A stretch of 64,000 bases of DNA from assembly GCA_963761335.1 (NCBI GenBank), contig CAVXGR010000012.1, forward strand, positions 576,001 to 640,000, given 5' to 3'. Below are positions 3,130-36,404 of this stretch, one piece after another. The first letter of the stretch is position 1. Every line of letters begins with the position of its first letter. The DNA comes from an uncultured delta proteobacterium (GTDB taxonomy: Bacteria > Desulfobacterota > Binatia > HRBIN30 > BPIQ01). A program made the position numbers and the translations under genes. Under the pieces are notes generated by a model. The model was given only the letters and a program-made list of their open reading frames with translations. It searched no databases and had not been told where the DNA came from.

Positions 3130-3156
3130 GAGCTGCGGGAGCGCGGCCCGCCTGGA

Positions 3157-4366: not shown

Positions 4367-4639
4367 CGCTGACCTACGTGCGCCGCGGCGGCGGAGCAAC
4401 ACCTTGGGTCGATGCCCCAATTGAGGTGAGAAACACTCCGAGGATGAAGAGGTCTTATAATAGTTCCTTTCTTAGCTCACCCTGGATTCTTACAGAGGCA
4501 GAGCCGCAGCCGAAAGATCGCACTTCTACGCGCGTAGTTCTACCTGCGGCCCTGGATAATTCCTGGGCCACAGCCGTGCCCGCACCAGTGCCCCTGCCCG
4601 TCCTTGGAGCGGGCGAGGAGAACGGGCGAAGCACGGTCA

Positions 4640-7462: not shown

Positions 7463-10400
7463 TTCACATCCCCCGGGCAGAGCCCCACCACCGAGAGGCA
7501 GGGAAGATGGCGGAAGCGGTGGCGGAACTTGATGTCGCCGCCGAAGGTGCCCGCCTGCGACTCGGTCTGGCTCTTCCACTGCCCCTGGACGGATATCGAC
7601 GGCGTCAGCTGGTACTCGAGGCCGGCGCTGTTGCGCGTCTCCGCACCGAACGTGCTTCCCACCGTGGCGCTCAGCTGCTCGGTGATGTCCTTGCCGATGG
7701 TCAGACGCGGCTCGAAGGAGCCGGTGGTCGGCGAGAAGGTGGGCTCGATCTGCAGCCGGTCCACCGGCAGCACCTGGGTGATGTCGCGGCTCAGCTGTCG
7801 GCCGTAGAGCGACGGCGCCAGAGAAAGGATGTCGGCGGCAGCGGCGCCGCCACCGGCGCGCTGCAGCTGGGCCGAGGTCTTGCCCAGAGTGAGCAGGGCG
7901 AAGACGTCGGTCTGCGTCAGGTTCGCGTCGTCAGAGCTGAGGACGACGCGAAAGTTCTGCATGGTGCCGACCACCTGCGCGGTGACGTCGTAATCCGTCT
8001 CCGCCGTCTGCACGGTGGCGGTGGCGGTGAAGTGCAGATCCGGGTTGATCTGCGGCTGGTTGTTGAAGTCGATCGTGCCCTCGATGAGCTCGAGCTGCTC
8101 GCGGCCGACGACCACCTGCCCGGAGAGCAGCTCGACGCGCCCGTCGAGCCGCGGCGCCGCGGCGGTGCCGAGAACCCGCAGGTCGACGCGGAACTCGGCG
8201 GTGGCTACCGGGGTGTCGACATAGACGCCATCGGTCGCCACCACGTGCAGGTTGAGACGGACGGTGGTGCCGCCCTTCTGCGTCGGCCGGCCGACCCGCT
8301 GCACCTGGCGGCGCAACGACGGCATCAGGTCCTGCAGGCCGATGTCGCGGCTGTAGACGGCGCTGAGAATGGTGATCTGCCCGTCCACGGTGAGGTTCGA
8401 CCAGCTCCCCGTGACCTTGCCGGTCCCGGAGAGCCGGTCCTCGAGATCTTCGAGAAAGCCGGTGCTGATATCGACGAACTGCCAGCTCAGATCCGGGCCG
8501 GTCGCCATGTCCACCCCGCCCTGCACCGAGAAGTCGCCGCCGCCGAGCTTGCCCTGGATGCCGGTGACCTCGATCTGGTTCTGGTGCAGCTGGAAGCTGC
8601 CGTTGGCGTCGGTCACGCCGAAGGGAAGCCCGAAGTCGATGGCGAGGTTCTGCAGGTTGCCGCCGCCGCTCAGCGACCAGGCGCCGCCGCTGCGGCGGAT
8701 GTTGGCGTCGACGTTGAGATGACCGCGGGCGGAGGTGATCACCTGGCCGGCGAGCTCGAGGATCGCCGCGTCGGTGTCGGCGGTAACGTTCACCTGCATC
8801 GGGCCGCCCAGCTCGACGTAGCCGCTCGCCTGCAGGCGGCCGAGAGCGCCGCCGAGCTGCAGAGAACCGATGTCGAAGCGGCCCTTGTGGCCGGTGATCA
8901 CCACGGGTTGCTGGGCGCTCAGCGCCAGGCCGGAGCGGCTGATCTCGAGCTGCGGCAGGCGCAGCTCCATGTCGAGGGAGGCGGTCGGCTCCGAGAGCCT
9001 GCCCTTGGCGGTGAGCGTTCCGCTGGTGCGGACGGCGAGATCGGCTTCGGGCGACAGGGCCGGACCGAGGTCGACGGTATCGAGGATGACTTCGAAGTCG
9101 TAGGGATAGCCGGCGGCGCTGCGCACCGTGCCGTCGGCGACGAGCTTCTGCGAGGGCGTGCCGATGTGCAGGCTCCAGCCCTGGGGCACCGACTGGGCCT
9201 TTGCGGTGACCTGGCCGATGTCGCGATTCTCGACCTTCACGTCCTGAAGGATTACCTGGGCCTCACCCGCGGGCTGGCGGAGGCTTCCGGTGATATTGGC
9301 CTGGACGACGGCGGTGCCCTCGAGGTTCTGCCCCATCTTCTGGATGAAGCCGAAGCCGTCGAGGGCCCAGGGCATCGACTGCGCCTGCAGCGACACCTGC
9401 TCGGTTCCGGTGCCATGCCCCTCGAGCGTGAGCGTCTCTCCCTCGCGGTGTTGGATCTGCGCGTCGACCTTCCAGCTCTTGCCGGTGACCTCCACGTCGG
9501 CGTGCACCGAGGAAAACCGCTCCGTGGCCAGCGCCAGCGGCTTGCCGTTCAGCTGGCCGCTGAGCTGCAGATTGCTCCATTCTCCCTGGGCGCTCGCCTG
9601 TGCGGTCAGCTCGCCCGACATGTACGGCAGGTCGAGACCCAGTCCGTTGGCCACCGTCCACATGGCCTCGAGGTCGACGTTCTGCACATCCACCTGCCAG
9701 GAGTTCTCCGCGCCGTTCTGCAGGGCGACGCGCCCGTTCACCGCCGCCCGCCCGCCCACGGCACGCACCTCGATCTGCTTGGCGACGAGATCTTTCTCCG
9801 TCGCCTCGAAGCCGCCGCTGACGGCGTCGATGCGCACCCCCTGAACCACCACGCCATTGGCGGCAATGTCGCCGCTGATCGCCGGCGAAGAAGTGGTGCC
9901 GCCGATGGCGGCGGTCAGACGCACGGAGCCACCCTGCAGGGTGGGCTCCAGGGGCCGGAGCACCGCGGTGTTGGGCACGGAGATCTCCACATGGCCGTCC
10001 AGAGACTGGTTCGCCCCGACCTGAACCTTCGCCTGGATCGCCTCCGCGCCGTTCAGCCGAACGCTGGCGTCGGCGCTGCCGCTGCCGCCGGCGAGGCTCG
10101 CCTCGGCGTGCGCCGCGACCTCGAGCCCGCTGCCCGCGTACGAGGCGCGGCGCACTCCCTGCAGAGCGGCATCGAAATTTCCCTGCTCGACGGCGAACGG
10201 CGAAATGGTGCCCGCCGCCGTCAGCTCGGCACTGCCGCTCCCCTCGAGATTGGCGACGCCGAGCCGCGGCCCGAGAGCGGCGAGGTCAATGCCGCTGACC
10301 TGGACCTTGGCGTCGAACGGATAGGCGCCCTCGATCGTCAGCGCCGCGTTCCCGGCGAGCTGCAGGCCCTCGCCGCGGACATCCAGGTCGGAGACCTGCA

Positions 10401-11310
10401 GATGCTTGTCGCCGTAGTCGAGATTGCCGGCGAGGAGGGTGCCGCGATAATCGTCGTAGCGCCAATCCCTGACGGCGACCTTCGCCTGCACCCGGGGCTC
10501 GAGGAGATCGCCGCGGAGCGTCCCGGAGACCGACAGCTGGCCGGCGACCGGGGCCTGCAGGCCGAGCAGATCGGCCACCTTGCCGAGGGCGACGTCGGCG
10601 TCGACGGCGTCCAGGTGCGGCGCCGTGGACTTGGCGTCGATCGAGCCGAGATCGCTGCGCAAGGTCAGCTTGTCGACGACCAGGCCCTTCTGATCGACGC
10701 CGCCCTGGAGGGCGAGCTTCTGGACGCGCACCTGGCGCGGCCCGAGAGAGACGTCGATGGCCTCGCTGTGCAGCTCCACGATGGCGCGCCCGGCCTGCGT
10801 CTGCGCCGTCAGCTCGGCTCCCGGCGCCTCGATGGTCATCGGCTCCTCTCCGGGCAGCACCACCTTCAGGTGGCCGACGTCGAAGGACGACACATCGATC
10901 GAGGGCAGCGGCAGGATCGACTCGATCCCCTCCTCCGGCTTCTCCTCCGGCTTCTGCTCCCCGGCCGGCCAGCGGGTCGCGTCGACGATCAGGTTGCCGA
11001 GGTGTCCGCTCACCACCGGCTGGCGGCGCGTCAGGCTCTCTCCGGCTCGAACCCTCAGATCGACGTCGGAGAGCTGCAGGCTGGGGCTCTCGGGCTTGCC
11101 GATGGTGAGCTGGTCGAGATGCGCCGTCGTCTGCAAGATGTCTAGATGGAGGCCGCGGATGGAGACGTCCTGATCGGTCGCCTGTGCCAGCACGCCCTCC
11201 AGGCGCTGGCGCCCGAGCTCGACCAACCACGGCAGACCCCAGAACCACGCGAGCACCACCAGGGCAGTGATCAGCAGCACCAGGCCGAGCAGAACTCGGC
11301 GCCAGGTCAC
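7459..11310 (-). CDS. tamB: TamB/AsmA-family protein (DUF490-like C-terminus)
   Basis: N-terminal TM anchor, long beta-rich repeats, NPDLHFTA and LTIGKDIT C-terminal pattern; adjacent to Omp85. Confidence 0.85.
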   Translation of the reverse strand: MTWRRVLLGLVLLITALVVLAWFWGLPWLVELGRQRLEGVLAQATDQDVSIRGLHLDILQTTAHLDQLTIGKPESPSLQLSDVDLRVRAGESLTRRQPVVSGHLGNLIVDATRWPAGEQKPEEKPEEGIESILPLPSIDVSSFDVGHLKVVLPGEEPMTIEAPGAELTAQTQAGRAIVELHSEAIDVSLGPRQVRVQKLALQGGVDQKGLVVDKLTLRSDLGSIDAKSTAPHLDAVDADVALGKVADLLGLQAPVAGQLSVSGTLRGDLLEPRVQAKVAVRDWRYDDYRGTLLAGNLDYGDKHLQVSDLDVRGEGLQLAGNAALTIEGAYPFDAKVQVSGIDLAALGPRLGVANLEGSGSAELTAAGTISPFAVEQGNFDAALQGVRRASYAGSGLEVAAHAEASLAGGSGSADASVRLNGAEAIQAKVQVGANQSLDGHVEISVPNTAVLRPLEPTLQGGSVRLTAAIGGTTSSPAISGDIAANGVVVQGVRIDAVSGGFEATEKDLVAKQIEVRAVGGRAAVNGRVALQNGAENSWQVDVQNVDLEAMWTVANGLGLDLPYMSGELTAQASAQGEWSNLQLSGQLNGKPLALATERFSSVHADVEVTGKSWKVDAQIQHREGETLTLEGHGTGTEQVSLQAQSMPWALDGFGFIQKMGQNLEGTAVVQANITGSLRQPAGEAQVILQDVKVENRDIGQVTAKAQSVPQGWSLHIGTPSQKLVADGTVRSAAGYPYDFEVILDTVDLGPALSPEADLAVRTSGTLTAKGRLSEPTASLDMELRLPQLEISRSGLALSAQQPVVITGHKGRFDIGSLQLGGALGRLQASGYVELGGPMQVNVTADTDAAILELAGQVITSARGHLNVDANIRRSGGAWSLSGGGNLQNLAIDFGLPFGVTDANGSFQLHQNQIEVTGIQGKLGGGDFSVQGGVDMATGPDLSWQFVDISTGFLEDLEDRLSGTGKVTGSWSNLTVDGQITILSAVYSRDIGLQDLMPSLRRQVQRVGRPTQKGGTTVRLNLHVVATDGVYVDTPVATAEFRVDLRVLGTAAAPRLDGRVELLSGQVVVGREQLELIEGTIDFNNQPQINPDLHFTATATVQTAETDYDVTAQVVGTMQNFRVVLSSDDANLTQTDVFALLTLGKTSAQLQRAGGGAAAADILSLAPSLYGRQLSRDITQVLPVDRLQIEPTFSPTTGSFEPRLTIGKDITEQLSATVGSTFGAETRNSAGLEYQLTPSISVQGQWKSQTESQAGTFGGDIKFRHRFRHLPCLSVVGLCPGDVK

Positions 11311-11453: not shown

Positions 11454-12830
11454 ATGAGACGACCGGCGACTCTCTGCTCACTGCTGGCGGTGGCTTCCGC
11501 CGCACTTCTCTGCGGGCCGCCGCCGGTGCGCGCGGTATCGCCGCCGGAGTCGTTCGCGCCGATCGTGCGCGCCGCCGGCCCGGCGGTGGCCTACATCTTC
11601 ACCACACAGGCACGGCGGATGCGGCGCTTCGGCATGCCCGGGGATCCGTTCGACGATTTCTTCCAGCGATTTTTCGGGGACGAGATGCCGCAGGTGCGCC
11701 CGCAGCAGAGCCTCGGCTCGGGATTCATCATCAGCGCCGACGGCTACATCGTCACCAACGCCCACGTGATCGCCGATGCCGTCAGCATCCGTGTCCGCCT
11801 GCACGACAAGCGGGAGTACGAGGCGGAGCTGGTGGGCAGCGACGCCAAGACCGACGTGGCCTTGATCAAGGTCGACGGCACCCACCTGCCGACGGTGAAG
11901 CTCGGCCACTCCGCCGGCCTCGAGATCGGCGACTGGGTACTCGCCATCGGCAATCCCTTCGGCCTCGAGCAGACGGTGACCGCGGGAATCGTCAGCGCCA
12001 AGGGGCGGGTCATCGGCGCCGGCCCATACGACGACTTCATCCAGACGGACGCGTCGATCAATCCCGGCAACTCGGGTGGACCGCTGCTCGACTCCGACGG
12101 CGAGGTCGTCGGCATCAACAGCGCCATCTTCAGCCGCAGCGGCGGCAACATCGGCATCGGCTTCGCCATCCCCATCGACTTGGCGCAGCACGTGATCGCC
12201 CAGCTCCGCGAGCACGGCCGCGTCATCCGCGGCTGGCTCGGGCTCGAGACGCAGGACATCACTCCCGAGCTGGCGCGCAGCTTCGGGCTGCCGCAGGCCA
12301 GCGGCGCGCTGGTGGTGCAGGTGGCTCCGGGGGGCCCGGCGGGCGAGGCCGGAATGCGGCGCGGCGACGTGGTCATCGCCTACGCCGGAAAGCCGGTCGC
12401 CGACAGCCGCGGGCTCCGCAGCCTGATTGCCGACGCTCCCATCGACGAGCAGGTCACCCTGCGCATCGTGCGCGACGGCCGCCAGTACTCGGTGCGCGCC
12501 AAGGTGTCCGGCATTCCGGGGGAGGCGGCGCGCCAGACGCGCCGCTCCGGTGAAGGCGGATGGGGCTTCGAGGTGTCGGAGCTGACGCCGCTGCTGGCAC
12601 GGCGCGCCGGCATACCGCCCGGTGTGCGCGGAGTCATGGTCACCGGGGTGACCGAGGGCGGCTCGGCGGCGGCGGCCGGCGTCGCCGAAGGCGACGTGAT
12701 CCGCGAGGTGAACCGCCGTGCGGTGACCTCCGTGGCGCAGCTGCAAGCCGCCGTGCGCCACACCGGCGAGCAGCTTCTCCTGCTCATTCAGCGGGGTCGA
12801 GGCGCCGGGTTTCTGCTGCTGCAGAGATAG
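11454..12830 (+). CDS. degP: DegP/DegQ (Do) serine endoprotease with two PDZ domains
   Basis: Signal peptide; GSGFII, TNAHV, TDVAL, QTDASINPGNSGGPL. Confidence 0.95.
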   Translation: MRRPATLCSLLAVASAALLCGPPPVRAVSPPESFAPIVRAAGPAVAYIFTTQARRMRRFGMPGDPFDDFFQRFFGDEMPQVRPQQSLGSGFIISADGYIVTNAHVIADAVSIRVRLHDKREYEAELVGSDAKTDVALIKVDGTHLPTVKLGHSAGLEIGDWVLAIGNPFGLEQTVTAGIVSAKGRVIGAGPYDDFIQTDASINPGNSGGPLLDSDGEVVGINSAIFSRSGGNIGIGFAIPIDLAQHVIAQLREHGRVIRGWLGLETQDITPELARSFGLPQASGALVVQVAPGGPAGEAGMRRGDVVIAYAGKPVADSRGLRSLIADAPIDEQVTLRIVRDGRQYSVRAKVSGIPGEAARQTRRSGEGGWGFEVSELTPLLARRAGIPPGVRGVMVTGVTEGGSAAAAGVAEGDVIREVNRRAVTSVAQLQAAVRHTGEQLLLLIQRGRGAGFLLLQR

Positions 12831-13049
12831 GTGCGGGCCCGCCGACGGGACCGGGACCCTTGACCCTTCGCCGGGGGAATATTAATTCGGCGCGGAGCAC
12901 TTCAGTCGCTGGCGACCTCACCGCCCCGCGTTGAGTGCCGCAGTGGAGGCACCATCGTCCAGGCACATCACATAGGAAGCGGTCAGGGGTCGGAAGAGCA
13001 AGCGGGCGGCAGCGGCGCTCCGCGGCGCCACCGCCGCTGGGTTTCGCTC

Positions 13050-14048
13050 ATGGTCGTCGTCGGCCTGGGCGTGCTGGTGCTGCTCTTCGTGCTCGCCGAC
13101 ACCCGCGCCCTGCTGCGCACCATCGAGCAGATCAATCCGTGGCTGCTGATCCTCCCGGTCCTGGCCACCTTGGGCAGCTATCTGGCGATGTCGAAGTCGT
13201 ACCAGGGAATCGCCCACGCCGCCGACTGCCCGTTTCCCTTCTGGGAGATGCTCAAGATCAGCTTCGTGGCCAACTCGATGAACTACATGGTGGCCACCGG
13301 CGGCCTCAGCGGCTTCGCCGCGCGCCTCTACTTCTTCACCCGCCGCGGCATTTCCGGGAGCACCGCGACCTCGATCTCGCTGGCCCAGGGGTTCATCACC
13401 AACGTCACGCTGCTGCTCTTCATTCTGATCGGCTTCGGCTACCTCATCGCCTCGGCGCGGCTCTCGCCGGCGGCGCTGGTGACCACTTCGATCCTCCTCG
13501 GGCTCTGCGTCGCCGCCACCATCATCTGCATCGTCTTCCTCTTCCGCCGGCGCCTGCGCCGTCGTGTCATCTTCGTCCTCTCGCAGACCGCCGACCGACT
13601 GCTGCACCGCTTCCTGCCGCGTTACAAGCCGGCGCGCACGCGCATCTGGCGCTTCCAGCGCAACTTGAACCTCGGCATCGACTTCCTGCTCGACCGCCGC
13701 ACGCACATGATCGCGCCGACCATCTGGATCCTGATCGACTGGCTACTGACCATGGGCATTCTCGAGTTCGCCTTCTTGTGTGTCGGCTACCCGATCTCCT
13801 TCAGCGTGCTGATCATCGGCTTCGCCCTCGGCCTGACGCTGTCCTTGATATCGATCATCCCCGCCGGCCTCGGTGTCATGGAGGGCTCGATGGCGGCGGT
13901 GTTCACCAGCCTCGACGTCCCCTTCGAGACGGCCGTGGTCGCCGTGCTGATCTTCCGCGTCGCCTTCCACGTCATCCCCCTGGTGACCAGCGTGTTCTTC
14001 TTCCACGGCCTCTTCGTCGAGGGCCGCGCCCACAGCGGCGAGGGCTGA
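13050..14048 (+). CDS. Lysylphosphatidylglycerol synthase TM-domain / flippase-like (UPF0104) membrane protein
   Basis: Multi-TM; IPAGLGVMEG and VLIFR motifs; start uncertain because the frame is open upstream. Confidence 0.8.
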   Translation: MVVVGLGVLVLLFVLADTRALLRTIEQINPWLLILPVLATLGSYLAMSKSYQGIAHAADCPFPFWEMLKISFVANSMNYMVATGGLSGFAARLYFFTRRGISGSTATSISLAQGFITNVTLLLFILIGFGYLIASARLSPAALVTTSILLGLCVAATIICIVFLFRRRLRRRVIFVLSQTADRLLHRFLPRYKPARTRIWRFQRNLNLGIDFLLDRRTHMIAPTIWILIDWLLTMGILEFAFLCVGYPISFSVLIIGFALGLTLSLISIIPAGLGVMEGSMAAVFTSLDVPFETAVVAVLIFRVAFHVIPLVTSVFFFHGLFVEGRAHSGEG

Positions 14049-14063
14049 GGGGGCGAGGGTTTC

Positions 14064-14250
14064 GGGTGTTGAGGGGTGGGTGTTGAGGGGTGGGTGTTGA
14101 GGGGTTGCGGGGTTGGGGGGAATCGTGCTCGTGCTCGTAATCGCGGGATAACCCCCTCCGCCCCGCCGACGCGGCGGGACGCCGCGTCTACGCCGATCTG
14201 CTTCCCCGCTCGCCAACAGCCAACACCTCAATACCCAACACCTATCACCT
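14064..14250. repeat. Composite intergenic repeat: (GGGTGTTGAGGGGT)x3, hexamer tract, single GTAG REP, complementary CCAACAC tract
   Basis: 14064-14106 tandem; TCGTGCTCGTGCTCGTAATCG 14123-14143; CCGACGCGGCGGGACGCCGCGTCTAC 14166-14191; C/A tract 14213-14250. Confidence 0.8.
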
Positions 14251-14314
14251 TGACTTTTCACGAGAATCATTCAGACTGCGGGGCCAGCTGGGGTGGATGA
14301 GGATGAGGATCGGC

Positions 14315-15562
14315 ATGCGCAAGAGACTGGCGAGCTCGGCATTGGTCGTCGCGGTCGCCCTGCTGGTGCCGGCGCTGACCGTTGCGGCGGCGCCGGCGAC
14401 CCTGGGCAGGATCACCGCCAAGGCGGCGATCCTGATGAATCGGCACACCCATGAGGTGATCTGGCAGCGGAACGCCGATCTGCCGTTGCCGCCGGCGAGC
14501 ACCACCAAGGTGCTGACCACGCTCGTGGCCCTGCGCAGTGCCCACCTCGACGACGTTTTCACGGTGAGCGAGGAGGCGGCGCAAGCGCCGCCGTCCAAGG
14601 TGCATCTGCGGCCCGGATGGCGGCTGACGCTCGAGGACCTCGCCTACGCCATCCTGCTCAACTCCGCCAACGACGCCGCCGAGGTGGTGGCCGAGAACGT
14701 CGCCGGATCGATCCCGGCGTTCGCCCGCCGCATGATGCGTCAGGCGCGCCAGGTGGGCGCCGTGAACAGCTTCTTCGTCAACCCACACGGCCTTCCCGCC
14801 GCGGGCCACGTGTCCACCGCCCGCGACCTGGCGTTGATCTTCGACGAGGCGCTCCAGGAGCCCGAGTTTCGCAGGATCGTCTCGACCCAGCGCATGGTCA
14901 TCGAGCCGGAACGCGGATTGCGGCGACCGATCCGCCTGCACAATCACAACCGCCTGCTGGACCGCTACAAGGTGCCGGTGGTGGGCAAGACGGGATGGAC
15001 GATCGCCGCCAAGAAGTGCTTCGTCGGCGCCGCCCTGCCCGACACGGGGCCCGAGATCCTGGTCGCCGTTCTCGGCTCGAAGGATCTGTGGGGCGACGTG
15101 ACCAAGCTGCTGAACTACGGACTTTCCGGCGATCGTTTCCCCGAGCCGCCCGACCTGCAGATGGCGCAAGCAGACGCCGATGCGGTCCCCGAGCCGCCGC
15201 CGGTCGGCGCCGGAGACAGCGAGGAGCTCAGCCCGGCGCCGCCGCGGCGCGCGCACCGACACGCGCATCGGCCGGCGCTGCGGAGCGCTCCTGCGTCGCC
15301 GGCGTCAGAGAACGGCTCGCTGCAGAGCTACGCCGTGCAGCTGGCCACATTCGAGAGCCCCGATCGCGCCCGCGAGCTGGTCTCGGCGGCAGAGCGCAAG
15401 GGCTACAAGGCCCGCATCCGCCGCATCGCCCGCTCCAACCGCACCATGTACCGCGTCACCATGGGCGATTTCGCCAGTCACGGCGCCGCCCGTTCCGCTG
15501 CGGCGCGCATGCGCCACGAGTACGAAGACCTCCGCCCGCTGGTGGTCGCCCCCTCGACGTAA
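14315..15562 (+). CDS. D-alanyl-D-alanine carboxypeptidase (S11) with C-terminal SPOR domain
   Basis: PASTTK (SxxK), SAND (SxN), NPHGL, GKTG; YAVQLATF...YRV SPOR pattern; GAGGA upstream of ATG 14315. Confidence 0.92.
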   Translation: MRKRLASSALVVAVALLVPALTVAAAPATLGRITAKAAILMNRHTHEVIWQRNADLPLPPASTTKVLTTLVALRSAHLDDVFTVSEEAAQAPPSKVHLRPGWRLTLEDLAYAILLNSANDAAEVVAENVAGSIPAFARRMMRQARQVGAVNSFFVNPHGLPAAGHVSTARDLALIFDEALQEPEFRRIVSTQRMVIEPERGLRRPIRLHNHNRLLDRYKVPVVGKTGWTIAAKKCFVGAALPDTGPEILVAVLGSKDLWGDVTKLLNYGLSGDRFPEPPDLQMAQADADAVPEPPPVGAGDSEELSPAPPRRAHRHAHRPALRSAPASPASENGSLQSYAVQLATFESPDRARELVSAAERKGYKARIRRIARSNRTMYRVTMGDFASHGAARSAAARMRHEYEDLRPLVVAPST

Positions 15563-15619
15563 GCGCGGTCGGTGACTCGGTGACCGAGGAACCGAGCCAC
15601 TGAGACACAGTACCGCGCC

Positions 15620-16897
15620 TCACTCCACAGCGGCGCGGATGAGGTGAACGAGCTGGATGTTCTCGCTGTGTCCGGTCAGGCGCGCCGTGATGGCGCCGCG
15701 GATCGGGCGGCCGAGGAGATAGAAGTCGCCCATGATGTCGAGGATCTTGTGGCGCACGAACTCGTCGGGGAAACGCAGGGTGGTGTTCACCACCCGCTCG
15801 TCGTCGACGAGAATGCAGTTGTCGAGGCGGCCGCCGCTGGCGAGGCCGAGAGCGGCCATGGCCTTCATGTCGCGCAGGAAGCCGAAGGTGCGCGCCGGAG
15901 CGATCTGCTCGCGGAAGGACTCCGGTCCGTCGTAGTCGTAGCGCAGGCGCTGCTCGCCCACCGGCGGCGGATAGCGCAGCGTGTAATCGATGCTGAAGCC
16001 ATCGGCCGGATCGATGCGGATCATCTCCCCCGACTCCTCGCCGACGCACAGGGGCTCGCGGATGACGATCTCTTCCAGCGGCGCCACCTGCTCTTCGATG
16101 CCGGCGCTCTCGATCAGCTGGCAGAACTCAATCGCCGAGCCGTCCATGATCGGCACCTCGCCCTGCACCTTCACCAGCAGGTTGGTGATGCGGTAGGCGT
16201 GCAGAGTCGCCAGCAGGTGCTCGACGGTCTTGGCACTGACGCCGTTGCGGTGCAGTCCGGTGGCGTAGCCGGTCGAGTCGACGAAGTCGACGCGGGCGGG
16301 AACGGTGTCGGCGGCCGCCAGGCTGCCGAAGACGATGCCGCTGCCCGCAGGCATCGGCTGCAGGATCAGGCCGGTCTTCACCCCCGAGTGCAGCCCGTGA
16401 CCACTGGCGACGACGCTGCGCCGCAGCGTCTTCTCGCGAAGCGCGGGCAAGGCCACGGTGGAGCCGGGCGCCGCGCCGCCGCCCTCCGGAGCGGCGCAGC
16501 CGTCCTCGGCATCCTCGCCGCGCGTGTGCCGCCGGGCATGGTGCTCGAGGGCGCGGTTGACGATGCGCAGCAGGCCGTCGAGGGGAAACGGCTTCTCGAT
16601 GAAATCGAAGGCGCCGAGCTTGGTGGCGGTCACCGCGGTCTCGATGTTGCCGTGCCCGGAGATCATCACCACTTCCGGGCCGGCGTTCTCGGCCTTCAGC
16701 TCGCGCAGCAGCTGGATGCCGTCGAGCTCCGGCATCCAGATGTCGAGCAGAACCAGCTCGGGGTGCTCGCGGCGCACGATCTCGCGCGCCACCATCCCGT
16801 CCTCCGCCTCGATGACGCGCAGCCCCTCGTCGGCCAGCACACCCCGCAGGGAAGCGCGAATGTCGGCTTCGTCATCCACCACCAGAACCGTCGGCAT
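15620..16897 (-). CDS. lpxC: Response-regulator receiver domain fused to LpxC (UDP-3-O-acyl-GlcNAc deacetylase)
   Basis: aa 1-120 REC (VVDDE, LLD52IWMP, ISGHGNIETAV, EK102PF); aa ~154-425 LpxC (GHGLHSG, TVEHLLA, EVPIMDGSA, IAPARTFGF, HKILDIMGD, TGH); SD GAAGGGAG. Confidence 0.93.
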   Translation of the reverse strand: MPTVLVVDDEADIRASLRGVLADEGLRVIEAEDGMVAREIVRREHPELVLLDIWMPELDGIQLLRELKAENAGPEVVMISGHGNIETAVTATKLGAFDFIEKPFPLDGLLRIVNRALEHHARRHTRGEDAEDGCAAPEGGGAAPGSTVALPALREKTLRRSVVASGHGLHSGVKTGLILQPMPAGSGIVFGSLAAADTVPARVDFVDSTGYATGLHRNGVSAKTVEHLLATLHAYRITNLLVKVQGEVPIMDGSAIEFCQLIESAGIEEQVAPLEEIVIREPLCVGEESGEMIRIDPADGFSIDYTLRYPPPVGEQRLRYDYDGPESFREQIAPARTFGFLRDMKAMAALGLASGGRLDNCILVDDERVVNTTLRFPDEFVRHKILDIMGDFYLLGRPIRGAITARLTGHSENIQLVHLIRAAVE

Positions 16898-16929
16898 TGG
16901 ATCTCCCTTCTGTCGCCGCTACGTCCGCG

Positions 16930-19176
16930 TCACGCGCGAATGGCGTGCAAGGCGTTCTCGCGACGCCGCAGCGGCAGCTCGATGATGAAGCGGCTGCCGC
17001 GCGGGGCGTTGTCGCGCACGCGGAGGTAGGCCTGGTGATCCGCAGCAATTGCGGAGACGATCGCCAGCCCCAGTCCGGTGCCATCCTTCTTCGTCGAAAC
17101 ATACGGCTCGAACAGCCGTCCCCTCACCTCCGGCGGAATGCCACAGCCGTTGTCGGCCACCTCGAGCTGTACCGTGCCGATGCGCTCCCGGTACGAGGTC
17201 GAGATCTCGATGCGCGGCCCGCCGTCCTCCCCGGCACCCTGGCACGCCGCCACGGCATTGTCGAGAAGGTTGATCACCGCCCGCTTGATCGCCTCCCGGT
17301 CGATCTCCACCAGGGGCAGATCCGGCTCCGGAGTGAAGATGAAGCCGATGTCGCGGTGCCCCTCGCGGAAGAGGACCAGCGCCTCGTCGATGACCGCGTT
17401 GAGATCGTGGGGCGCCATGTCCGCGGGCGGCAGCCGGGCGAAGCTGGCGAACTCGTTGACCAGGCGCTTGAGCCCCTCCACCTGGCGGATGATGGTGCGG
17501 GTGCACTCGTCGAGCACCGAGCCGTCGCTGCCGTTGAGGATGCTCGCATAGCGTCTGCGCAGGCGTTGCGCCGACAGCTGAATCGGGGTGAGAGGATTCT
17601 TGATCTCGTGGGCGATCCGCCGCGCCACCTCGCGCCAGGCCTCCATGCGCTCGACGCGCAGCATGTGACTGACGTCGTCGAAGAAGACCATGACACCGAG
17701 GCGTGCCCCGGCCTCGTCGCGCAGCACGGCGACGGTCACCAGAGCCGTGATGATGCGCTGACCGCCGCTGAGCTTCACCTGGCGTTCCACTTCGTCCTGC
17801 TCGCCGCGCGCCACCACGCCGATCATCTCGCCGACATCGCGCAGATCGTTGCGCGCCAAGAGGCTCTTCCAGTCGGCGCCGCGCGCGGCGCTTCCCTCGA
17901 CGCCCAGCATCTTCTCGGCGGCGCGGTTGATGGTGCTGATCTCTCCCCCCTGGCCGATGGAGACGACGCCGGCGGTGACGTTGGCGAGCACCGCCTCGAT
18001 ATAGCGGCGCCCATCCTCGAGCTCGCCGTGAATCTGCTTCAGCTCGGCGGTCATCTGATTGAACGAGATCACCACCGTGGCCAGCTCCTCGTCGGCCCCC
18101 GCCTCGATACGATGGTCCCAGTTGCCCTGGGCGACCTCGCGGGTGCCCTCGGAGAGCCGTTGCAGAGGCACGGTGATGCCCTTGGCGACGCGAAAGCCAA
18201 ACCAGGTGGCGGCAAAGATCACCACCAGGGTGATCAGCGTCAAGGTGAGGATGTAGCTGTTCTTCATCGGCTGCCGCAGCACGCCGAAGTGACGGAACTC
18301 CTGGTACGACTGGGCGATGTCGCGCGCCCGGCTGCTGACGCTCCGGCCGATGACATAGTCGACCAGAACGCTGCCCAGCAGCGCCCCGTCGGCGCCGCGC
18401 ACCGGCACCGCGGCGCGCACGATGTCGCTGCCCCCCGCCGGGTGGGTGACCACCATCTTCTCGCCCCGGTGCAGCTCGGCGAGCTCGTCGGCGGCGGGCG
18501 TGATGCGCAGGGCGCTCGTCTGCGGGTCCTCGGCGACGGCGACGATCTTGCCGTCGGGGGAGACGGCCTCGACGCGCGCCAGGTTGTAGGCGAGACAGGC
18601 GTTCTCGAGGCGGCGCTGCAGGGCCATGTGGTGCGGCTCGTTCCACAGCTGCGGCTCGGCGATGCCGTCGCCGATCTGCTCGCCGAAGTGAAGGGCGCTG
18701 TTGCCCGCCTGCTGATAGATGACCTGGGCGATGTCGAGGGCGCTGTTGAGGGCACTCTCGACGCGCACACTGAACCAGCTGTCGAAGGCGCGCGCCAGGA
18801 ACCCCTGCGAGACCATGAAAAGCAGGGTGGTGGGAATGAGAGTCAGGCCCACGAAGGCCACCACCAGCCGCGTGCGCAGGCGCGAGCCGAGGATTCCCCG
18901 CCGCCGCTCCAGCGCCAACTTGGCGAAGTTGCGGATGACCAGGAAGACGATGAGGACGAGGAGGATGAGATTGAGGTTGATGAGCAGGAAGAAGACGAGA
19001 TTGCCCGGCATCGAGCCGCTGTCGCCGAAACGCGGCATCCACGTCTCGACCACGGCAAAGAAGCCGAAGACGACGGCGGCCAGGAAGATCAGGAAGATCT
19101 CCCAGCGACGGCGGCGGCGCTCATCGGCCGGGATGCCGGGGGCCTCGCCGCTCAAGGTGAGTAGCCACCGCCACAT
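16930..19176 (-). CDS. ntrY: NtrY-like membrane sensor histidine kinase (TMs, periplasmic domain, HAMP, PAS, HisKA, HATPase)
   Basis: GSRLRTRLV, AWREVARRIAHEIKNPLTPIQLSAQRL H-box, NLLDNA, DNGCG, FEPYVSTK, GTGLGLAIV. Confidence 0.9.
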   Translation of the reverse strand: MWRWLLTLSGEAPGIPADERRRRRWEIFLIFLAAVVFGFFAVVETWMPRFGDSGSMPGNLVFFLLINLNLILLVLIVFLVIRNFAKLALERRRGILGSRLRTRLVVAFVGLTLIPTTLLFMVSQGFLARAFDSWFSVRVESALNSALDIAQVIYQQAGNSALHFGEQIGDGIAEPQLWNEPHHMALQRRLENACLAYNLARVEAVSPDGKIVAVAEDPQTSALRITPAADELAELHRGEKMVVTHPAGGSDIVRAAVPVRGADGALLGSVLVDYVIGRSVSSRARDIAQSYQEFRHFGVLRQPMKNSYILTLTLITLVVIFAATWFGFRVAKGITVPLQRLSEGTREVAQGNWDHRIEAGADEELATVVISFNQMTAELKQIHGELEDGRRYIEAVLANVTAGVVSIGQGGEISTINRAAEKMLGVEGSAARGADWKSLLARNDLRDVGEMIGVVARGEQDEVERQVKLSGGQRIITALVTVAVLRDEAGARLGVMVFFDDVSHMLRVERMEAWREVARRIAHEIKNPLTPIQLSAQRLRRRYASILNGSDGSVLDECTRTIIRQVEGLKRLVNEFASFARLPPADMAPHDLNAVIDEALVLFREGHRDIGFIFTPEPDLPLVEIDREAIKRAVINLLDNAVAACQGAGEDGGPRIEISTSYRERIGTVQLEVADNGCGIPPEVRGRLFEPYVSTKKDGTGLGLAIVSAIAADHQAYLRVRDNAPRGSRFIIELPLRRRENALHAIRA

Positions 19177-19185
19177 GAGTGCCCT

Positions 19186-19214
19186 ATTCTACGGAAGCCG
19201 GTGGGGACAGGCAA
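19186..19214 (-). promoter_or_regulatory. Putative promoter of the kinase/REC-LpxC operon (TTGCCT-N17-TAGAAT)
   Basis: -35 at 19214-19209, -10 at 19191-19186, ATG 9 nt downstream. Confidence 0.6.
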
Positions 19215-19275
19215 CTTTTCCCTCTCATGTCGCGTCGCGCCTGCTGACCTCGCGCCGGAAAAGTAGCCTGTCCCC
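19203..19275. repeat. Inverted-repeat element with 19-bp arms (GGGGACAGGCAACTTTTCC ... GGAAAAGTAGCCTGTCCCC)
   Basis: Arms 19203-19221 and 19257-19275, one mismatch. Confidence 0.9.
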
Positions 19276-19283
19276 AGCCGCGG

Positions 19284-20045
19284 TCAGGCCTGCGGGCGGC
19301 TGGGGAAGAGGCGTACCCGGCGCGCCGACGGCGGCGCCCCGCGCTCCATGGCCGCCACCATCTCGCGGGCGGCCTGGGCGGGGTCGCGCGCCTCGAGGAT
19401 GGAACGGCCGACCACCAGGTAATCGGCGCCGGCACGCACCGCCTCCTCGGGGGTCATGACGCGCTTCTGATCGTCGTGCTCCTCGGAGGATGGCCGCACT
19501 CCCGGGGTGACGATGACGAAGGGACGGCCGCACTCGCGGCGGATCTGGCGGACCTCCTTCGGCGAGGCGACGACGCCGTCCATCTCGGCCTCCTTGGCGA
19601 GCCGCGCCAGACGGACCACCTGGCTCTCCACCTTGCCCGATATGCCGACGCGTTTCAGGTCGGCGCGATTGAGGCTGGTCAGCACCGTCACCGCGAGGAT
19701 CTTCGGCCGGCGCAGGCCCTCGTTGCGGCAGACCTTGCGCACCTCGCTGACGGTGCGCTCCATCATCTCGAGGCTGCCGGAGGCGTGCACGTCGAACATG
19801 CGCACCCCGAGGCGGGCCGCCTCGACACCGGCCTTGGCGACGGTGCGCGGGATGTCGTGGAACTTGAGGTCGAGAAACACCTCGCCGCCGCGCTCGCGGA
19901 TGGTGCGCACGATGGCCGGTCCGCTGCGCAGGAAGAGCTGCTTGCCGACCTTGAACATGCCCACCTCGTTCATCAGCCGGGAGACGAAGCTCAGCGCCTC
20001 GCGCGGCGAGTCGACGTCGAGGGCGAAGATCAGGCGTGACCGCAT
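19284..20045 (-). CDS. pyrF: Orotidine-5'-phosphate decarboxylase
   Basis: LIFALD, FLDLKFHDIPRTV, AVTVLTS, VTPGVRP, DDQKR, VVGRSI. Confidence 0.96.
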   Translation of the reverse strand: MRSRLIFALDVDSPREALSFVSRLMNEVGMFKVGKQLFLRSGPAIVRTIRERGGEVFLDLKFHDIPRTVAKAGVEAARLGVRMFDVHASGSLEMMERTVSEVRKVCRNEGLRRPKILAVTVLTSLNRADLKRVGISGKVESQVVRLARLAKEAEMDGVVASPKEVRQIRRECGRPFVIVTPGVRPSSEEHDDQKRVMTPEEAVRAGADYLVVGRSILEARDPAQAAREMVAAMERGAPPSARRVRLFPSRPQA

Positions 20046-22696: not shown

Positions 22697-22796
22697 TCGT
22701 GCTCGTGCTCGCAATCGTGATCGGGCTCGCGGAATCATCCGCCGCGTCGCGGCACGGCCCCCCAGCCTTCCCGACGCGGCGGGACGCCGCATCTAC
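22697..22796. repeat. Hexamer tract plus single GTAG REP (related to 14123-14191)
   Basis: TCGTGCTCGTGCTCGCAATCG 22697-22717; CCGACGCGGCGGGACGCCGCATCTAC 22771-22796. Confidence 0.75.
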
Positions 22797-22905
22797 TCGT
22801 GCTTCGAGCGCGAGCGGGATCCCCACCCCGAGGCCCGCGCTTTTTCTTTGGGCGCGCATTTGGTATAGGAACGGTCCGTGGCTCGCTTCCGGGCCGCGGT
22901 TTTTT

Positions 22906-25303
<2,398 letters not shown>

Positions 25304-25342
25304 CGGCGCCTGCGGCGCCGCAGGCCGGCTCGTCCGTTGGCC

Positions 25343-26176
25343 ATGACCCGCAACACCCGCATCGTCTCCATTGCCGGCGTCGCCGTCGGCGGCGGCAATC
25401 CGCTCGCCTTCATCGGCGGGCCGTGCATCATCGAGAGCCGCGACAGCGCCCTGCGCCACGCCGAGGCCATGCGCCGCATCACCGCCAGCGCCGGCGTGCC
25501 GTTCATCTTCAAGTCGTCCTTCGACAAGGCGAACCGCACCTCGCGCAGCTCGTACCGCGGTCCCGGCATCGACGCCGGGCTGGCGATCCTCGCCGAGGTG
25601 CGCCGCGAGATCGGCGTGCCGGTGCTGACCGACGTCCACGAGGTGGCCCAGGTGGGCCCGGCGGCGGCGGTCGTCGACGTGCTGCAGACGCCCGCCTTCC
25701 TCTGCCGGCAGACGGACCTGCTCGAGGCGTGCGCCGCCAGCGGCAAGCCGGTGAACGTCAAGAAGGGACAGTTCCTGGCGCCCTGGGACATGGGGCCGGT
25801 GGTGGAGAAGATGGCCGCCGGGGGCAATCGCGCCCTGCTGGTGACCGAGCGCGGCGTCTCCTTCGGCTACAACAACCTGGTCACCGATCTGCGCGCCCTG
25901 CCGATTCTCGCCGAGATCGGCTATCCGGTGGTCTACGACGCCGGTCACAGCGTGCAGCTCCCCGGGGGGCAGGGATCGCGCTCCGGGGGACAGCGGCAGT
26001 TCATCCGGCCGCTGGCGCGCGCCGCCGTCGCCACCGGCGTCGACGCCGTTTTCCTCGAGGTGCACGAAGATCCGGACCGCGCTCTCAGCGACGGACCAAA
26101 CTCCTATCCGCTCGGCGAGCTGGCGCCGCTCCTCGGCGAGCTGAAGAGAGTCGATGAGCTCCTCCGCCAGCTCTGA
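25343..26176 (+). CDS. kdsA: KDO 8-phosphate synthase
   Basis: GPCIIE, KSSFDKANRTS, PAFLCRQTD, KKGQF, ERGVSFGY, ALSDG. Confidence 0.97.
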   Translation: MTRNTRIVSIAGVAVGGGNPLAFIGGPCIIESRDSALRHAEAMRRITASAGVPFIFKSSFDKANRTSRSSYRGPGIDAGLAILAEVRREIGVPVLTDVHEVAQVGPAAAVVDVLQTPAFLCRQTDLLEACAASGKPVNVKKGQFLAPWDMGPVVEKMAAGGNRALLVTERGVSFGYNNLVTDLRALPILAEIGYPVVYDAGHSVQLPGGQGSRSGGQRQFIRPLARAAVATGVDAVFLEVHEDPDRALSDGPNSYPLGELAPLLGELKRVDELLRQL

Positions 26177-27218
26177 AGGCCGCCGCCGGCCGCGCCGCGC
26201 CCGGCAGCGGCCCGCCAAGCCGCGGCGGCCGGCGATGGCGCCGCCCGCCGGGAACGTCGAGGGCGATCTGGCGCGTGCCCGCCGCGTCCTGCGCATCGAA
26301 GCGGGCGCCATCCGCGAGCTGGCGCGGCGCCTCGACGACCGCTTCAGCCGCGCGGTCGACCTGCTGGTGCAGTGCCGCGGCAAGGTCGTGGTCACCGGCA
26401 TGGGAAAGTCCGGACAGATCTGCCGCAAGCTGGCCTCGACCTTTGCCAGCACCGGCACACCGGCCTTCTTCCTACACGCCGGCGAGGGCATGCACGGCGA
26501 CGCCGGCATGATCATGAAGGAGGACGTGGTGCTCGCCGTCTCCAACAGCGGCGAGACCGAGGTCGTACAGCTGCTGCCGCTGATCAAGCGCCTCGAGCTG
26601 CAGCTGATCGCGCTCACCGGGGTTCCCGCCTCCACCCTGGGGCGCGCCGCCGACGTCGTGCTCGACACCCGCGTCGCCGAGGAGGCCTGCCCTCTCGGTT
26701 TGGCGCCGACGGCGAGCACCACGGCGACGCTCGCCCTCGGCGACGCCTTGGCCGTGGCCGCCCTGGAGCGCCGCAACTTCAATGCCGACGACTTCGCGGT
26801 CCTGCACCGCGGCGGCAGCCTTGGCCGCCGCCTGCTCAAGGTCGACGAGGTCATCCACACCGGCGCCCAGCTGCCGCTGGTGGCGGCGGAGGCGCCGATC
26901 GAGGCGGTGCTGGCGGAGATGACGGAGAAGCGGCTGGGCATCACCGGGGTCACCGACGGCGACGGCGCTCTGGTGGGCGTGATCACCGACGGCGATCTGC
27001 GCCGCGGCCTGCAGAGCTCCGCGGACCTGCGCGGCCACTCGGCGCGGACGCTGATGACGACGCGCCCGAAGACCATCGAGGCCGGGGCCCTGGCCGAGCG
27101 GGCTCTGGCCACCATGGAGCGCCACAGCATCACCTCGCTCTTCGTCCTCGAGAGCAACGGGCAACGGCCGCTCGGCATCGTCCATCTTCACGACCTGCTG
27201 AAAGCCGGCGTCGTCTAG
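26154..27218 (+). CDS. kdsD: KpsF/GutQ arabinose-5-phosphate isomerase (SIS plus CBS pair)
   Basis: GMGKSG, ASTGTP, HGD, SNSGET, EACPLGLAPTAST, TDGDLRR, HLHDLL; start may be ATG 26235. Confidence 0.95.
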   Translation: MSSSASSEGRRRPRRARQRPAKPRRPAMAPPAGNVEGDLARARRVLRIEAGAIRELARRLDDRFSRAVDLLVQCRGKVVVTGMGKSGQICRKLASTFASTGTPAFFLHAGEGMHGDAGMIMKEDVVLAVSNSGETEVVQLLPLIKRLELQLIALTGVPASTLGRAADVVLDTRVAEEACPLGLAPTASTTATLALGDALAVAALERRNFNADDFAVLHRGGSLGRRLLKVDEVIHTGAQLPLVAAEAPIEAVLAEMTEKRLGITGVTDGDGALVGVITDGDLRRGLQSSADLRGHSARTLMTTRPKTIEAGALAERALATMERHSITSLFVLESNGQRPLGIVHLHDLLKAGVV

Positions 27219-27228
27219 TCGGGGGCCG

Positions 27229-28245: not shown

Positions 28246-28302
28246 GAGAGGGAGGCGTTTCCGCGAACACCGGTGCCATCAGGCACCAAGGGAGCAATTG
28301 TC

Positions 28303-35839: not shown

Positions 35840-35841
35840 GG

Positions 35842-36366: not shown

Positions 36367-36404
36367 AGTCGCCCCCTGGTTCGGTAAGTTGATCGGTGGC
36401 CCGC

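Follow-up and report, generated by a model that had tools for sequence, protein, structure and literature searches.

The whole stretch of DNA analysed here, 64,000 nucleotides long, is called the window below. On its minus strand we found an uninterrupted open reading frame with an ATG start that joins a response-regulator receiver (REC), through a linker, to a complete LpxC, and directly upstream of it a gene for a sensor histidine kinase. The features of the locus are:

15620..16897, minus strand: REC-LpxC fusion gene, 425 aa (open reading frame; Pfam and NCBIfam domains; sole PF03331 match in the genome)
16559..16888, minus strand: receiver, residues 4-113, NtrX-type, with the D52 codon at 16742-16744 (Pfam, NCBIfam, structure matches, alignment)
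16433..16558, minus strand: continuation of the final helix of the receiver up to residue 129, and variable, disordered Gly/Ala/Pro/acidic linker (~129-149) (AlphaFold, alignment)
15638..16432, minus strand: LpxC deacetylase domain, residues 156-420, with E226/H227, T337, H383/K384/D387, D391 and H410 (Pfam, TIGR00325, structures)
16898..16929, minus strand: 32-nt spacer from the kinase stop codon TGA (16930-16932) to the ATG of the fusion (sequence)
16930..19176, minus strand: NtrY-type sensor histidine kinase, 748 aa, the likely phosphodonor (Pfam: NtrY_N membrane region, HAMP, PAS, HisKA, HATPase_c)
19186..19214, minus strand: sigma-70-like promoter match (TTGCCT-17-TAGAAT, 9 of 12) shortly before the start of the kinase gene (consensus match only)

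Both halves of the fusion were recognised by profile searches. Pfam placed Response_reg (PF00072) at residues 4-113 (104.3 bits, cut-off 30.2; 5.3e-30) and LpxC (PF03331) at residues 156-420 (280.6 bits, cut-off 27; 1.7e-83), and the NCBIfam lpxC equivalog TIGR00325 scored 253.8 bits (cut-off 187.25), so that the second half belongs to the LpxC family by either profile. A search of solved structures matched it to LpxC at 2.4e-53. In the AlphaFold model (pLDDT 88.1) the LpxC domain superposed on the P. aeruginosa, A. aeolicus and E. coli LpxC structures with an rmsd of 1.6-2.2 Å and a target TM of 0.83-0.94; as modelled, the two-domain LpxC fold is present. Residues 106-129 of the model form a long helix that prolongs the last helix of the receiver, and disorder is confined to residues 129-149 (pLDDT <50). 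When 64 short-form relatives, the most distant at 39% identity, were aligned, the linker stretch showed no consensus residue and varied in length. Such a linker would fit a loose tether as well as a regulatory connector. When the receiver (1-128) and the LpxC domain (150-425) were submitted as separate chains with the alignment of the 64 relatives, the predicted complex scored 0.01 (mark 0.32), a value that speaks neither for nor against docking. The monomer model has a pTM of 0.82, a hint of a preferred mutual orientation of the two domains that we do not count as evidence.

The same alignment was used to follow the functional residues. In the receiver, the phospho-acceptor D52, S80 and K102 never vary, and at least 90% of the sequences keep D8/D9; by profile score, acidic pocket, Asp, Ser/Thr and Lys, this is a response-regulator receiver. 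The TVEH, HKxxD and GH motifs carry the Zn ligands and catalytic residues of LpxC, the general-base Glu among them, which we take to be E78/H79, H238/K239/D242 and H265 in E. coli numbering. Here the corresponding E226-H227 (TVEH), H383-K384-D387 (HKxxD) and H410 (GH), together with D391, are invariant across the 64 relatives and at least 95% common to 21 stand-alone LpxCs, and the stretches TVEHLL, HKILD and GH are matched residue by residue in the solved LpxC chains of P. aeruginosa. The first-pass annotation, made from the DNA letters, had described a single uninterrupted 425-aa frame holding a complete receiver (D8/D9, D52, S80, K102) and a full LpxC with all three motifs retained, and these points were borne out by the frame list, the alignment and the solved structures. 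Its linker of ~30 aa was right in composition (Gly/Ala/Pro/acidic) and too short: ~42 aa (114-155) separate the Pfam borders, and the helix of residues 106-129 reaches into them. Residues S161, G176, H233, K243, C259, Y309, G314, L363, T372 and Y393 of the LpxC domain are specific to the fused clade.

A natural fusion of LpxC to a second domain is likewise found in bifunctional LpxC-FabZ, which we take to be a Bacteroidetes protein. There the partner is a C-terminal fatty-acid dehydratase, whereas in REC-LpxC it is an N-terminal signalling domain. REC-LpxC scored 192.6 bits against the LpxC-FabZ model (NF009667; cut-off 465), matching the LpxC part of the profile alone, and is not a member of that family.

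The fusion gives the single PF03331 match in the 99%-complete genome of its host, a soil bacterium, which settles whether it is the only lpxC there, a point raised when the gene was first noted. The window also carries kdsB, kdsA, kdsD, an lpxL-like gene, lptB, lptC, Omp85 and TamB, and genes for LpxA and LpxB lie elsewhere in the same genome. The host is predicted to make LPS and the fusion to be an active deacetylase. In 10/10 other fused genomes tested the fused gene was again the only LpxC. One genome (G034) has a stand-alone LpxC besides its fusion, and the fused form therefore need not be the housekeeping enzyme in every host.

Nor is the architecture confined to this assembly, as might have been feared at first: it was found in 120/120 best database matches, from independent assemblies, and in at least 40 of the 201 sampled genomes of the phylum. 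Fused genes lie on complete contigs of many genomes and lack internal stops. The public contigs of four soil/marsh metagenome runs were short and of low depth on this stretch, with none over 16439-16572, and say nothing on the fusion or its expression.

The receiver is of NtrX type. Its best NCBIfam receiver match was NtrX (4.5e-38, residues 3-124) and its best solved-structure matches were 4d6x and 5m7n. It is 44-61% identical to NtrX-like receivers encoded beside NtrY and 36-46% identical to other sigma-54 activators (four from its own genome, two from another genome of the phylum), and it clusters with the NtrX-like receivers at SH-aLRT 91 in a tree built, as was the LpxC tree below, by a 'quick' search. 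The full NtrX model (NF051870) covered residues 3-124 only, at 131.3 bits against a cut-off of 600, and Pfam found neither an AAA+ nor an HTH domain. Judged by these comparisons, REC-LpxC is derived from the NtrX type and is not an NtrX member. The NtrY/NtrX pairs of Alphaproteobacteria (R. sphaeroides, C. crescentus, Brucella) share the kinase architecture found here, and NtrX supplies the best family and structure matches of the receiver; however, NtrX is a REC-AAA+-HTH protein that binds DNA and regulates dozens of genes, whereas REC-LpxC has neither AAA+ nor HTH. According to the portions consulted of the published work, the lpxC transcript rises 8.8-fold in R. sphaeroides lacking ntrYX (PMC7240162), and NtrYX lowers lpxC transcription and LPS in this species (PMC7240162; reviewed in PMC12444477). 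That effect of NtrX on lpxC is indirect.

The upstream kinase contains NtrY_N, HAMP, PAS, HisKA and HATPase_c in this order, all five above their Pfam cut-offs, which makes it NtrY-type, and it is the only NtrY_N match of the genome. A GGGAG ribosome-binding site (16903-16907) lies within the spacer, and no terminator-like sites were found in 15300-19700. The two genes are probably in the same operon. The sigma-70-like match at 19186..19214, the only one in the region (shuffled sequences average 0.2), is a possible operon promoter; no sigma-54-type motif was found upstream of the kinase or of the fusion in this genome. Kinase homologues stand directly upstream of the fusion in all 15 close relatives with upstream DNA and in 6/11 phylum relatives. 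Among 30 checkable short-form loci the kinase was not adjacent in nine (5/11 in the phylum set, 4/19 in the close-relative set), and all five genomes examined with such an orphan fusion still hold one full-length NtrY-like kinase elsewhere. No NtrX in the present genome reaches the family cut-off (best match 400 bits, cut-off 600), and by this measure there is no other NtrX-type partner for the kinase.

Longer relatives combine REC, a sigma-54 AAA+ domain, a lid and LpxC (9/9 fetched sequences, 119/120 database matches). Of their AAA+ domains (n = 137), 135 keep Walker A, four keep the DE of Walker B and one has a GAFTGA-like motif; by GAFTGA loop and Walker B Asp-Glu, the long forms do not qualify as sigma-54 enhancer-binding proteins. 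Among NtrX-like neighbours of NtrY, the GAFTGA-like motif was seen in 10/13 and DE in 11/13. The LpxC-domain tree placed all 49 fused forms on one side and 21 stand-alone LpxCs of the phylum on the other (SH-aLRT 99). Loss of AAA+ took 4-5 changes on the best tree, of which well-supported branches force only one. The fusion family descends from a REC-AAA+-LpxC form.

The unfused relatives, for their part, appear to control lpxC via sigma-54 and an adjacent NtrY/NtrX pair, as read from their loci. In 7/21 of these, lpxC is followed by ntrY (and by ntrX where the locus extends far enough), and in 17/21 a sigma-54-type -24/-12 motif lies at most 175 nt upstream of the stand-alone lpxC, against a background of 0.049 per 420 nt. 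Upstream of fused genes the motif was found in 2/49, in a scan by consensus and in GC-rich lineages that would give fewer chance matches. A Desulfovibrionales-labelled genome (L073) has lpxC and ntrYX on different contigs and gives no information on their synteny.

A comparable system has been described in the related Desulfovibrio lineage (DVU2931/DVU2934; Dde_3000/Dde_3003), which we liken to the present one by published description, not by sequence. As far as the consulted parts of these papers go, lpxC is the single target of the D. vulgaris sigma-54 regulator DVU2934 (kinase DVU2931), whose binding is confined to the region upstream of lpxC (PMC3333781) and which has the GAFTGA motif (PMC4641369, Table 1); in D. 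alaskensis, lpxC has a sigma-54 site and was the only strongly raised gene in a mutant of the kinase Dde_3000 (PMC4045070). In S. fumaroxidans lpxC lies directly upstream of the orthologous two-component operon (PMC4045070, in the part consulted), an order that matches the lpxC-ntrY-ntrX order of the 7/21 unfused loci. The single known output is LpxC, as here. In Desulfovibrio, however, control is transcriptional, through a DNA-binding sigma-54 activator, whereas here the AAA+ and DNA-binding parts are gone and the receiver sits covalently on the enzyme. We give an even chance to the following history. An ancestral NtrY/NtrX-like sigma-54 system dedicated to lpxC, which once switched its transcription as the Desulfovibrio system still does and as the sigma-54 motifs of unfused relatives suggest, would have captured the target gene by fusion. 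The regulator would have lost its DNA-binding domain and, as its AAA+ module decayed, GAFTGA and the ATPase Glu; in the Binatia lineage the whole module would then have gone, and the kinase would now switch the enzyme directly by Asp phosphorylation.

For the present function of REC-LpxC we favour, with a probability of about 0.6, an active LpxC with a working receiver that is phosphorylated or dephosphorylated at Asp52 by the neighbouring NtrY-type kinase, thereby setting LpxC activity. A candidate phosphorylation-controlled LpxC was also the interpretation of the first-pass annotation, and as a whole it is supported by the intact residues, the sole lpxC, the upstream kinase and the wide distribution; of the computational checks it had proposed, all spoke for it except read coverage, which was uninformative. 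What we infer is phosphotransfer from this kinase and any change, up or down, that phosphorylation brings to the enzyme. The membrane kinase encoded 32 nt upstream would change the phosphorylation state of Asp52, and this state would alter the amount of LpxC activity in the cell. The long helix running from the receiver into the linker would most likely transmit the change, either as receiver-driven dimerisation or as relief of autoinhibition. In this way an envelope-related signal would set lipid A flux at the protein level.

Known response regulators whose output is an enzyme include CheB (receiver-methylesterase), PleD and WspR (receiver-GGDEF) and RpfG (receiver-HD-GYP). They share with REC-LpxC the N-terminal receiver, flexible linker and C-terminal catalytic domain, and phosphorylation is expected to act as the switch of the enzyme. 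Their outputs act on signalling molecules or chemoreceptors, whereas REC-LpxC has as its output an essential enzyme of biosynthesis that catalyses a committed step. In enterobacteria LpxC is under FtsH/LapB/YejM proteolysis. The control point in E. coli is the same, in that lipid A flux follows from how much active LpxC there is (PMC12444477, in the part consulted); there, however, degradation proceeds via a C-terminal degron and the LapB adaptor, and REC-LpxC is without that tail.

Phosphorylation might instead set abundance, with the receiver as a phospho-dependent degron or adaptor handle through which the kinase sets LpxC turnover, a functional analogue of FtsH/LapB. We consider this unlikely, as receiver-fused enzymes usually work by allostery or dimerisation and the sequence gives no pointer to a protease or adaptor partner. 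It would agree with the TIGR00325 match, which stops at profile position 274/297, so that the tail bearing the E. coli degron is absent, and with the lack of a convincing LapB in this genome (best NF008755 match 32 bits; the only Zn_ribbon_LapB match is the N-terminal zinc ribbon of RadA), although this is a weak test for LapB, since in the control even E. coli fell below the NF008755 cut-off. Regulated proteolysis is, moreover, the known control of LpxC in E. coli (PMC12444477, same part).

Quite unlikely, in our view, is a receiver without effect, joined to a constitutive LpxC and serving only to draw off phosphate or surviving as a remnant of the ancestral regulator. The long, disordered and unconserved linker would suit it, and the AAA+ domains of the long relatives, which are visibly decaying, indicate that parts of the ancestral regulator can become relics. 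However, a relic receiver would drift as the AAA+ motifs did, and D52, S80 and K102 are held without exception, and D8/D9 nearly so, across the 64 sequences. In all cases examined the kinase, for its part, is still present, either next to the fusion or at another place in the genome, and here it has no other NtrX-type partner. A role of the receiver in localisation, in which it would dock on the membrane kinase and so draw LpxC to the inner membrane for a time set by phosphorylation, is improbable, since receiver-kinase contacts are normally transient. In favour of this idea count the kinase itself, an integral membrane protein with an NtrY_N region, and the LapB homologue of N. meningitidis, for which the consulted part of a review mentions a proposed action through the placement of LpxC at the inner membrane (PMC12444477). 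That the fusion arose in assembly or gene calling, or that the LpxC half is a non-catalytic sensor domain, is scarcely credible: the four soil runs left the linker uncovered, but the 120/120 best matches come from independent assemblies, many genomes show the gene without internal stops, and all catalytic residues are invariant in the sole LpxC of an LPS-making genome.

Lipid A synthesis is committed at the LpxC step, which is under tight control and has long been a target for antibiotics. Two ways of controlling LpxC are known, by regulated proteolysis in enterobacteria and at the level of transcription in a few lineages. No description of a REC-LpxC fusion was found in the literature searched, in line with the earlier statement that no characterised example was known, and the consulted part of a 2025 LpxC review lists no protein-level signalling input (PMC12444477). 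With a receiver on LpxC and a membrane kinase beside it, a signal could act on the enzyme itself. If its phospho-control is real, REC-LpxC would be the first response regulator with an essential envelope-biosynthesis enzyme as output, and LpxC would have a third kind of control in addition to proteolysis and transcription. As the kinase belongs to the NtrY type, the locus may also hint at what NtrY-family kinases sense in the envelope. Stand-alone lpxC genes with sigma-54 motifs and ntrY-ntrX, long fusions with a decayed AAA+ and short fusions look like stages in the merging of a transcription factor with its target gene, an uncommon path of evolution.

A 1065-aa open frame around lpxC in another genome (L133) was considered as a further fusion and rejected. 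Pfam sees LpxC alone in it, at 763-1032, and a sigma-54-like site lies within it; the lpxC is in our reading an ordinary one that happens to be enclosed by a long open frame.

The REC-LpxC fusion was found to be encoded by a single uninterrupted frame with an ATG start, preceded by a kinase gene. The features are as follows:

15620..16897, minus strand: REC-LpxC fusion, 425 aa
Fusion residues 4-113: Response_reg (Pfam, 104.3 bits; cut-off 30.2)
Fusion residues 156-420: LpxC (Pfam, 280.6 bits; cut-off 27)
16930..19176, minus strand: NtrY-type kinase, 748 aa, directly upstream of the fusion on the same strand (Pfam NtrY_N, HAMP, PAS, HisKA, HATPase_c)

The C-terminal part scored 253.8 against the lpxC equivalog TIGR00325 (NCBIfam, cut-off 187.25), whereas the bifunctional LpxC/FabZ model was matched over its LpxC part only (192.6 against 465), so the fusion is not a member of that family. 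The best NCBIfam match of the receiver was NtrX (4.5e-38, residues 3-124), with a whole-protein score of 131, below the NtrX cut-off of 600. In an alignment of 64 short-form (REC-LpxC) relatives, down to 39% identity, the receiver residues D52 (the phospho-acceptor), S80 and K102 were invariant and D8 and D9 were conserved at 90% or more; in the LpxC part, E226, H227, H383, K384, D387, D391 and H410 were invariant and T337 reached at least 90%. The same LpxC positions were common to 21 stand-alone LpxCs of the phylum at 95% or more, and the TVEHLL, HKILD and GH stretches aligned with solved P. aeruginosa LpxC chains (E = 2.4e-53). The AlphaFold model of the fusion (pLDDT 88.1, pTM 0.82) matched the P. 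aeruginosa, A. aeolicus and E. coli LpxC structures with rmsd of 1.6-2.2 Å and target TM of 0.83-0.94. The closest solved receivers were 4d6x and 5m7n, which we take to be Brucella NtrX. Judged by sequence, both halves look functional. The agreement of the ORF listing, Pfam and NCBIfam bears out the first-pass annotation, which had described an intact receiver and a full-length LpxC in one 425-aa frame, and the receiver residues and catalytic motifs it had named are kept across the alignment. Its linker of ~30 aa had to be adjusted: disorder is confined to residues 129-149, preceded by a long helix (106-129 in the AlphaFold model) that extends the last helix of the receiver.

The fusion is not confined to this assembly. 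All of the best 120 database matches carried both Pfam domains (64-78% identity over 98-100% of the query; 424-444 aa, self excluded), many of them from independent assemblies labelled Candidatus Binatia. Among 201 sampled genomes of the phylum, 28, the source included, had one contiguous stop-free match across both domains; a further 14 had the LpxC part (54-61% identity) within frames of ~690-840 aa, and six more within frames of 450-497 aa. Pfam searches on nine of the 14 returned REC, Sigma54_activat, AAA_lid_14 and LpxC in every case (685-795 aa), and those on three of the six gave REC-LpxC with longer linkers each time. Counting the 28 contiguous and the nine and three Pfam-checked genomes, the fused form is therefore present in at least 40 of 201, and probably in 48. 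When a long form (REC-AAA+-LpxC) was used as query, the architecture was complete in 119 of the 120 best matches, the exception lying on a contig of 1,996 bp. Twenty additional short-form loci came from a scan of species-representative genomes, as did long forms in seven records whose titles name Nitrospinota or Nitrospinaceae, so that by record title the fused family extends to a second phylum. The long forms of these seven loci (L062, L063, L067, L068, L070-L072) are 664-733 aa; an NtrY-like kinase is upstream in two, and their LpxC domains make up one well-supported group within the fused clade.

The source assembly (G000; 6.26 Mb, 29 contigs, 99% complete), in which the window is C12:576001-640000, has a single PF03331 match genome-wide, this fusion, and the fused gene was likewise the sole LpxC in ten of ten further fused genomes (six short, four long). 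Response regulators with enzymatic outputs are already known; LpxC as the output is new. The earlier remark that no REC-LpxC has been characterised held up, as neither a receiver-LpxC nor an NtrX-LpxC protein was described anywhere in a full-text literature search, its reach stopping short of older response-regulator censuses. In a 2025 review of lipid A regulation, the terms 'fusion', 'fused' and 'response regulator' do not occur (PMC12444477).

The TGA of the kinase gene is 32 nt from the ATG of the fusion, with GGGAG inside the spacer. No terminator-like site was found in 15300-19700, and one sigma-70-like match lies immediately before the kinase start. This kinase alone carries NtrY_N in the genome, and none of the genome's proteins reached the NtrX cut-off (best of 103 matches, 400 bits against 600). 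The receivers of its four best-scoring sigma-54 activators, 36-46% identical to that of the fusion, fall outside the NtrX-like group. Together these observations point to the fusion as the natural partner of the kinase. An NtrY-like kinase was directly upstream in 15/15 close short-form relatives with upstream DNA; four more distant short forms had none within 4 kb, and one further locus has no upstream DNA. Among relatives in the phylum the kinase was upstream in 6/11 short forms and 5/9 long forms, the upstream DNA of one of the nine being too short to judge. In five of five genomes whose fusion locus lacks a neighbouring kinase, a single full-length NtrY-like kinase is encoded elsewhere, with 42-45% identity along almost its entire length. 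Near all five of these orphan kinases (L135, L136, L137, L138, L139) lies an RNase H-like (RVT_3) gene, and a Zn_ribbon_9 gene is also present in three of the flanks.

In a quick IQ-TREE search, fused LpxC domains (n=49: 32 short, 17 long) were split from stand-alone ones of the same phylum (n=21) by a branch of SH-aLRT 99, which fits a single origin of the fusion. Short and long forms are mixed in this tree; the best tree has 4-5 changes, of which well-supported branches force only one. In a receiver tree from only 120 columns, poorly resolved within, the fused-form receivers clustered with those of NtrX-like, NtrY-adjoining regulators (53 rows), apart from six other sigma-54 activators (SH-aLRT 91). 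The fusion descends from an NtrX-type regulator. Walker A (GxxGxGK) was retained in 135 of 137 long forms; four kept the Asp-Glu of Walker B, 89 had its Asp alone, and one had a GAFTGA-like motif at any position. As a set, the 137 sequences are without the GAFTGA loop and Walker B Asp-Glu needed in a working sigma-54 enhancer-binding protein, and their AAA+ module is a relic. NtrX-like, NtrY-adjoining regulators of related lineages had a GAFTGA-like loop in 10/13 and Asp-Glu in 11/13; the loop was missing from two Rhizobium-type records and from one gammaproteobacterial record. A protein that has ceased to activate transcription would be expected to lose its sigma-54 contact loop and catalytic glutamate. 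Because both have been lost and the REC-AAA+-lid part has full-length homology to NtrX-type regulators, the short forms likely derive from long forms.

We have, then, an intact receiver covalently linked to an intact LpxC, the only one of its genome, with a conserved NtrY-type kinase. The kinase would control whether D52 is phosphorylated, which in turn would alter LpxC output. As the route we favour dimerisation driven by the receiver, or release from autoinhibition, since NtrC-family receivers act by way of their final helices and the helix after them, and the helix after the receiver is retained in the modelled fusion. Phospho-dependent turnover of LpxC, or its recruitment to the membrane kinase, would be alternative routes. 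A receiver without effect on the enzyme is difficult to reconcile with the invariance of the phospho-chemistry across 64 sequences, set against the decay of the AAA+ motifs beside it.

Unfused lpxC was examined at 21 loci (20 retrieved, plus L027). An NtrY-like kinase lay 3' of lpxC on the same strand in seven, followed in five by an NtrX-like REC-AAA+ gene. We scanned for the sigma-54-type -24/-12 consensus TGGCAC-N5-TTGCW, holding GG and GC fixed and requiring a match at nine or more of the 11 positions. The motif was found 39-173 nt upstream of lpxC in 17/21 stand-alone loci, against a background of 0.049 per 420 nt on both strands of these loci. The identical scan found it upstream of 2/49 fused genes (one inside the upstream kinase gene), a comparison in which GC-rich lineages yield fewer chance matches; it was upstream of 2/20 kinases of fused operons and, in the window, upstream of neither the fusion nor the kinase. 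Only G034 was seen to hold free and fused LpxC together: its stand-alone lpxC, NtrY-like kinase and lpxK lie in a row (L027, G034:C33, 500-4984) with no adjoining response regulator, and a divergent REC-LpxC paralogue (39% identity) is on a separate contig (L026, G034:C11, 3965-5281). A DUF4390 gene separates lpxC from the kinase in three of the seven unfused lpxC-kinase loci, and one also precedes an orphan NtrY-like kinase (L123 2844-3413, L127 4521-5096, L128 2586-3161, L139 884-1507); it may have an accessory role in these NtrY systems. The window's kinase has pyrF upstream in its place, and DUF4390 is absent there.

Published systems also connect two-component regulators with lpxC. In D. 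vulgaris, lpxC (DVU2917) is the sole target of the regulator DVU2934, itself encoded in one operon with the kinase DVU2931, and the orthologous operon of S. fumaroxidans has lpxC directly upstream (PMC3333781). Table 1 of PMC4641369 places DVU2934 among two-component enhancer-binding proteins, records its GAFTGA and gives its function as 'Lipid A biosynthesis'. In D. alaskensis, lpxC has a sigma-54 site upstream and was the only strongly raised gene in a mutant of the kinase Dde_3000 (PMC4045070). These Desulfovibrio proteins may be of the NtrY/NtrX type. In R. sphaeroides without ntrYX, lpxC transcript rose 8.8-fold and LPS increased, an indirect effect (PMC7240162).

The organism clearly makes LPS, as judged from the LPS genes in the window and elsewhere. 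Within the window are genes for Omp85/POTRA, TamB and DegP, the kdsB-pyrG-kdsA-kdsD cluster accompanied by an lpxL-like acyltransferase, and lptC and lptB adjoining rpoN; outside it are LpxB and LpxA, the latter with two matches that exceed the equivalog cut-off, one adjoining lpxB and the second on a different contig (G000:C16:215223-218804, G000:C17:343991-344743). Envelope genes are dense at 489-11310, 11454-15562, 22699-28245 and 34420-39778, and include lgt, the Omp85/POTRA protein (979 aa), TamB (1283 aa), DegP/HtrA, an LPG_synthase_TM protein and an S11 DD-carboxypeptidase with a SPOR domain; the kds cluster and lptC, lptB, rpoN, hpf and hprK lie farther along. Four ORFs had no Pfam match at the thresholds applied (1369-1785, minus; 1840-3129, plus; 28273-28881, plus; 29210-29722, minus). 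Their third-position GC of 0.89-0.92 is coding-like, and one, of 429 aa, sits between lgt and the Omp85/TamB genes.
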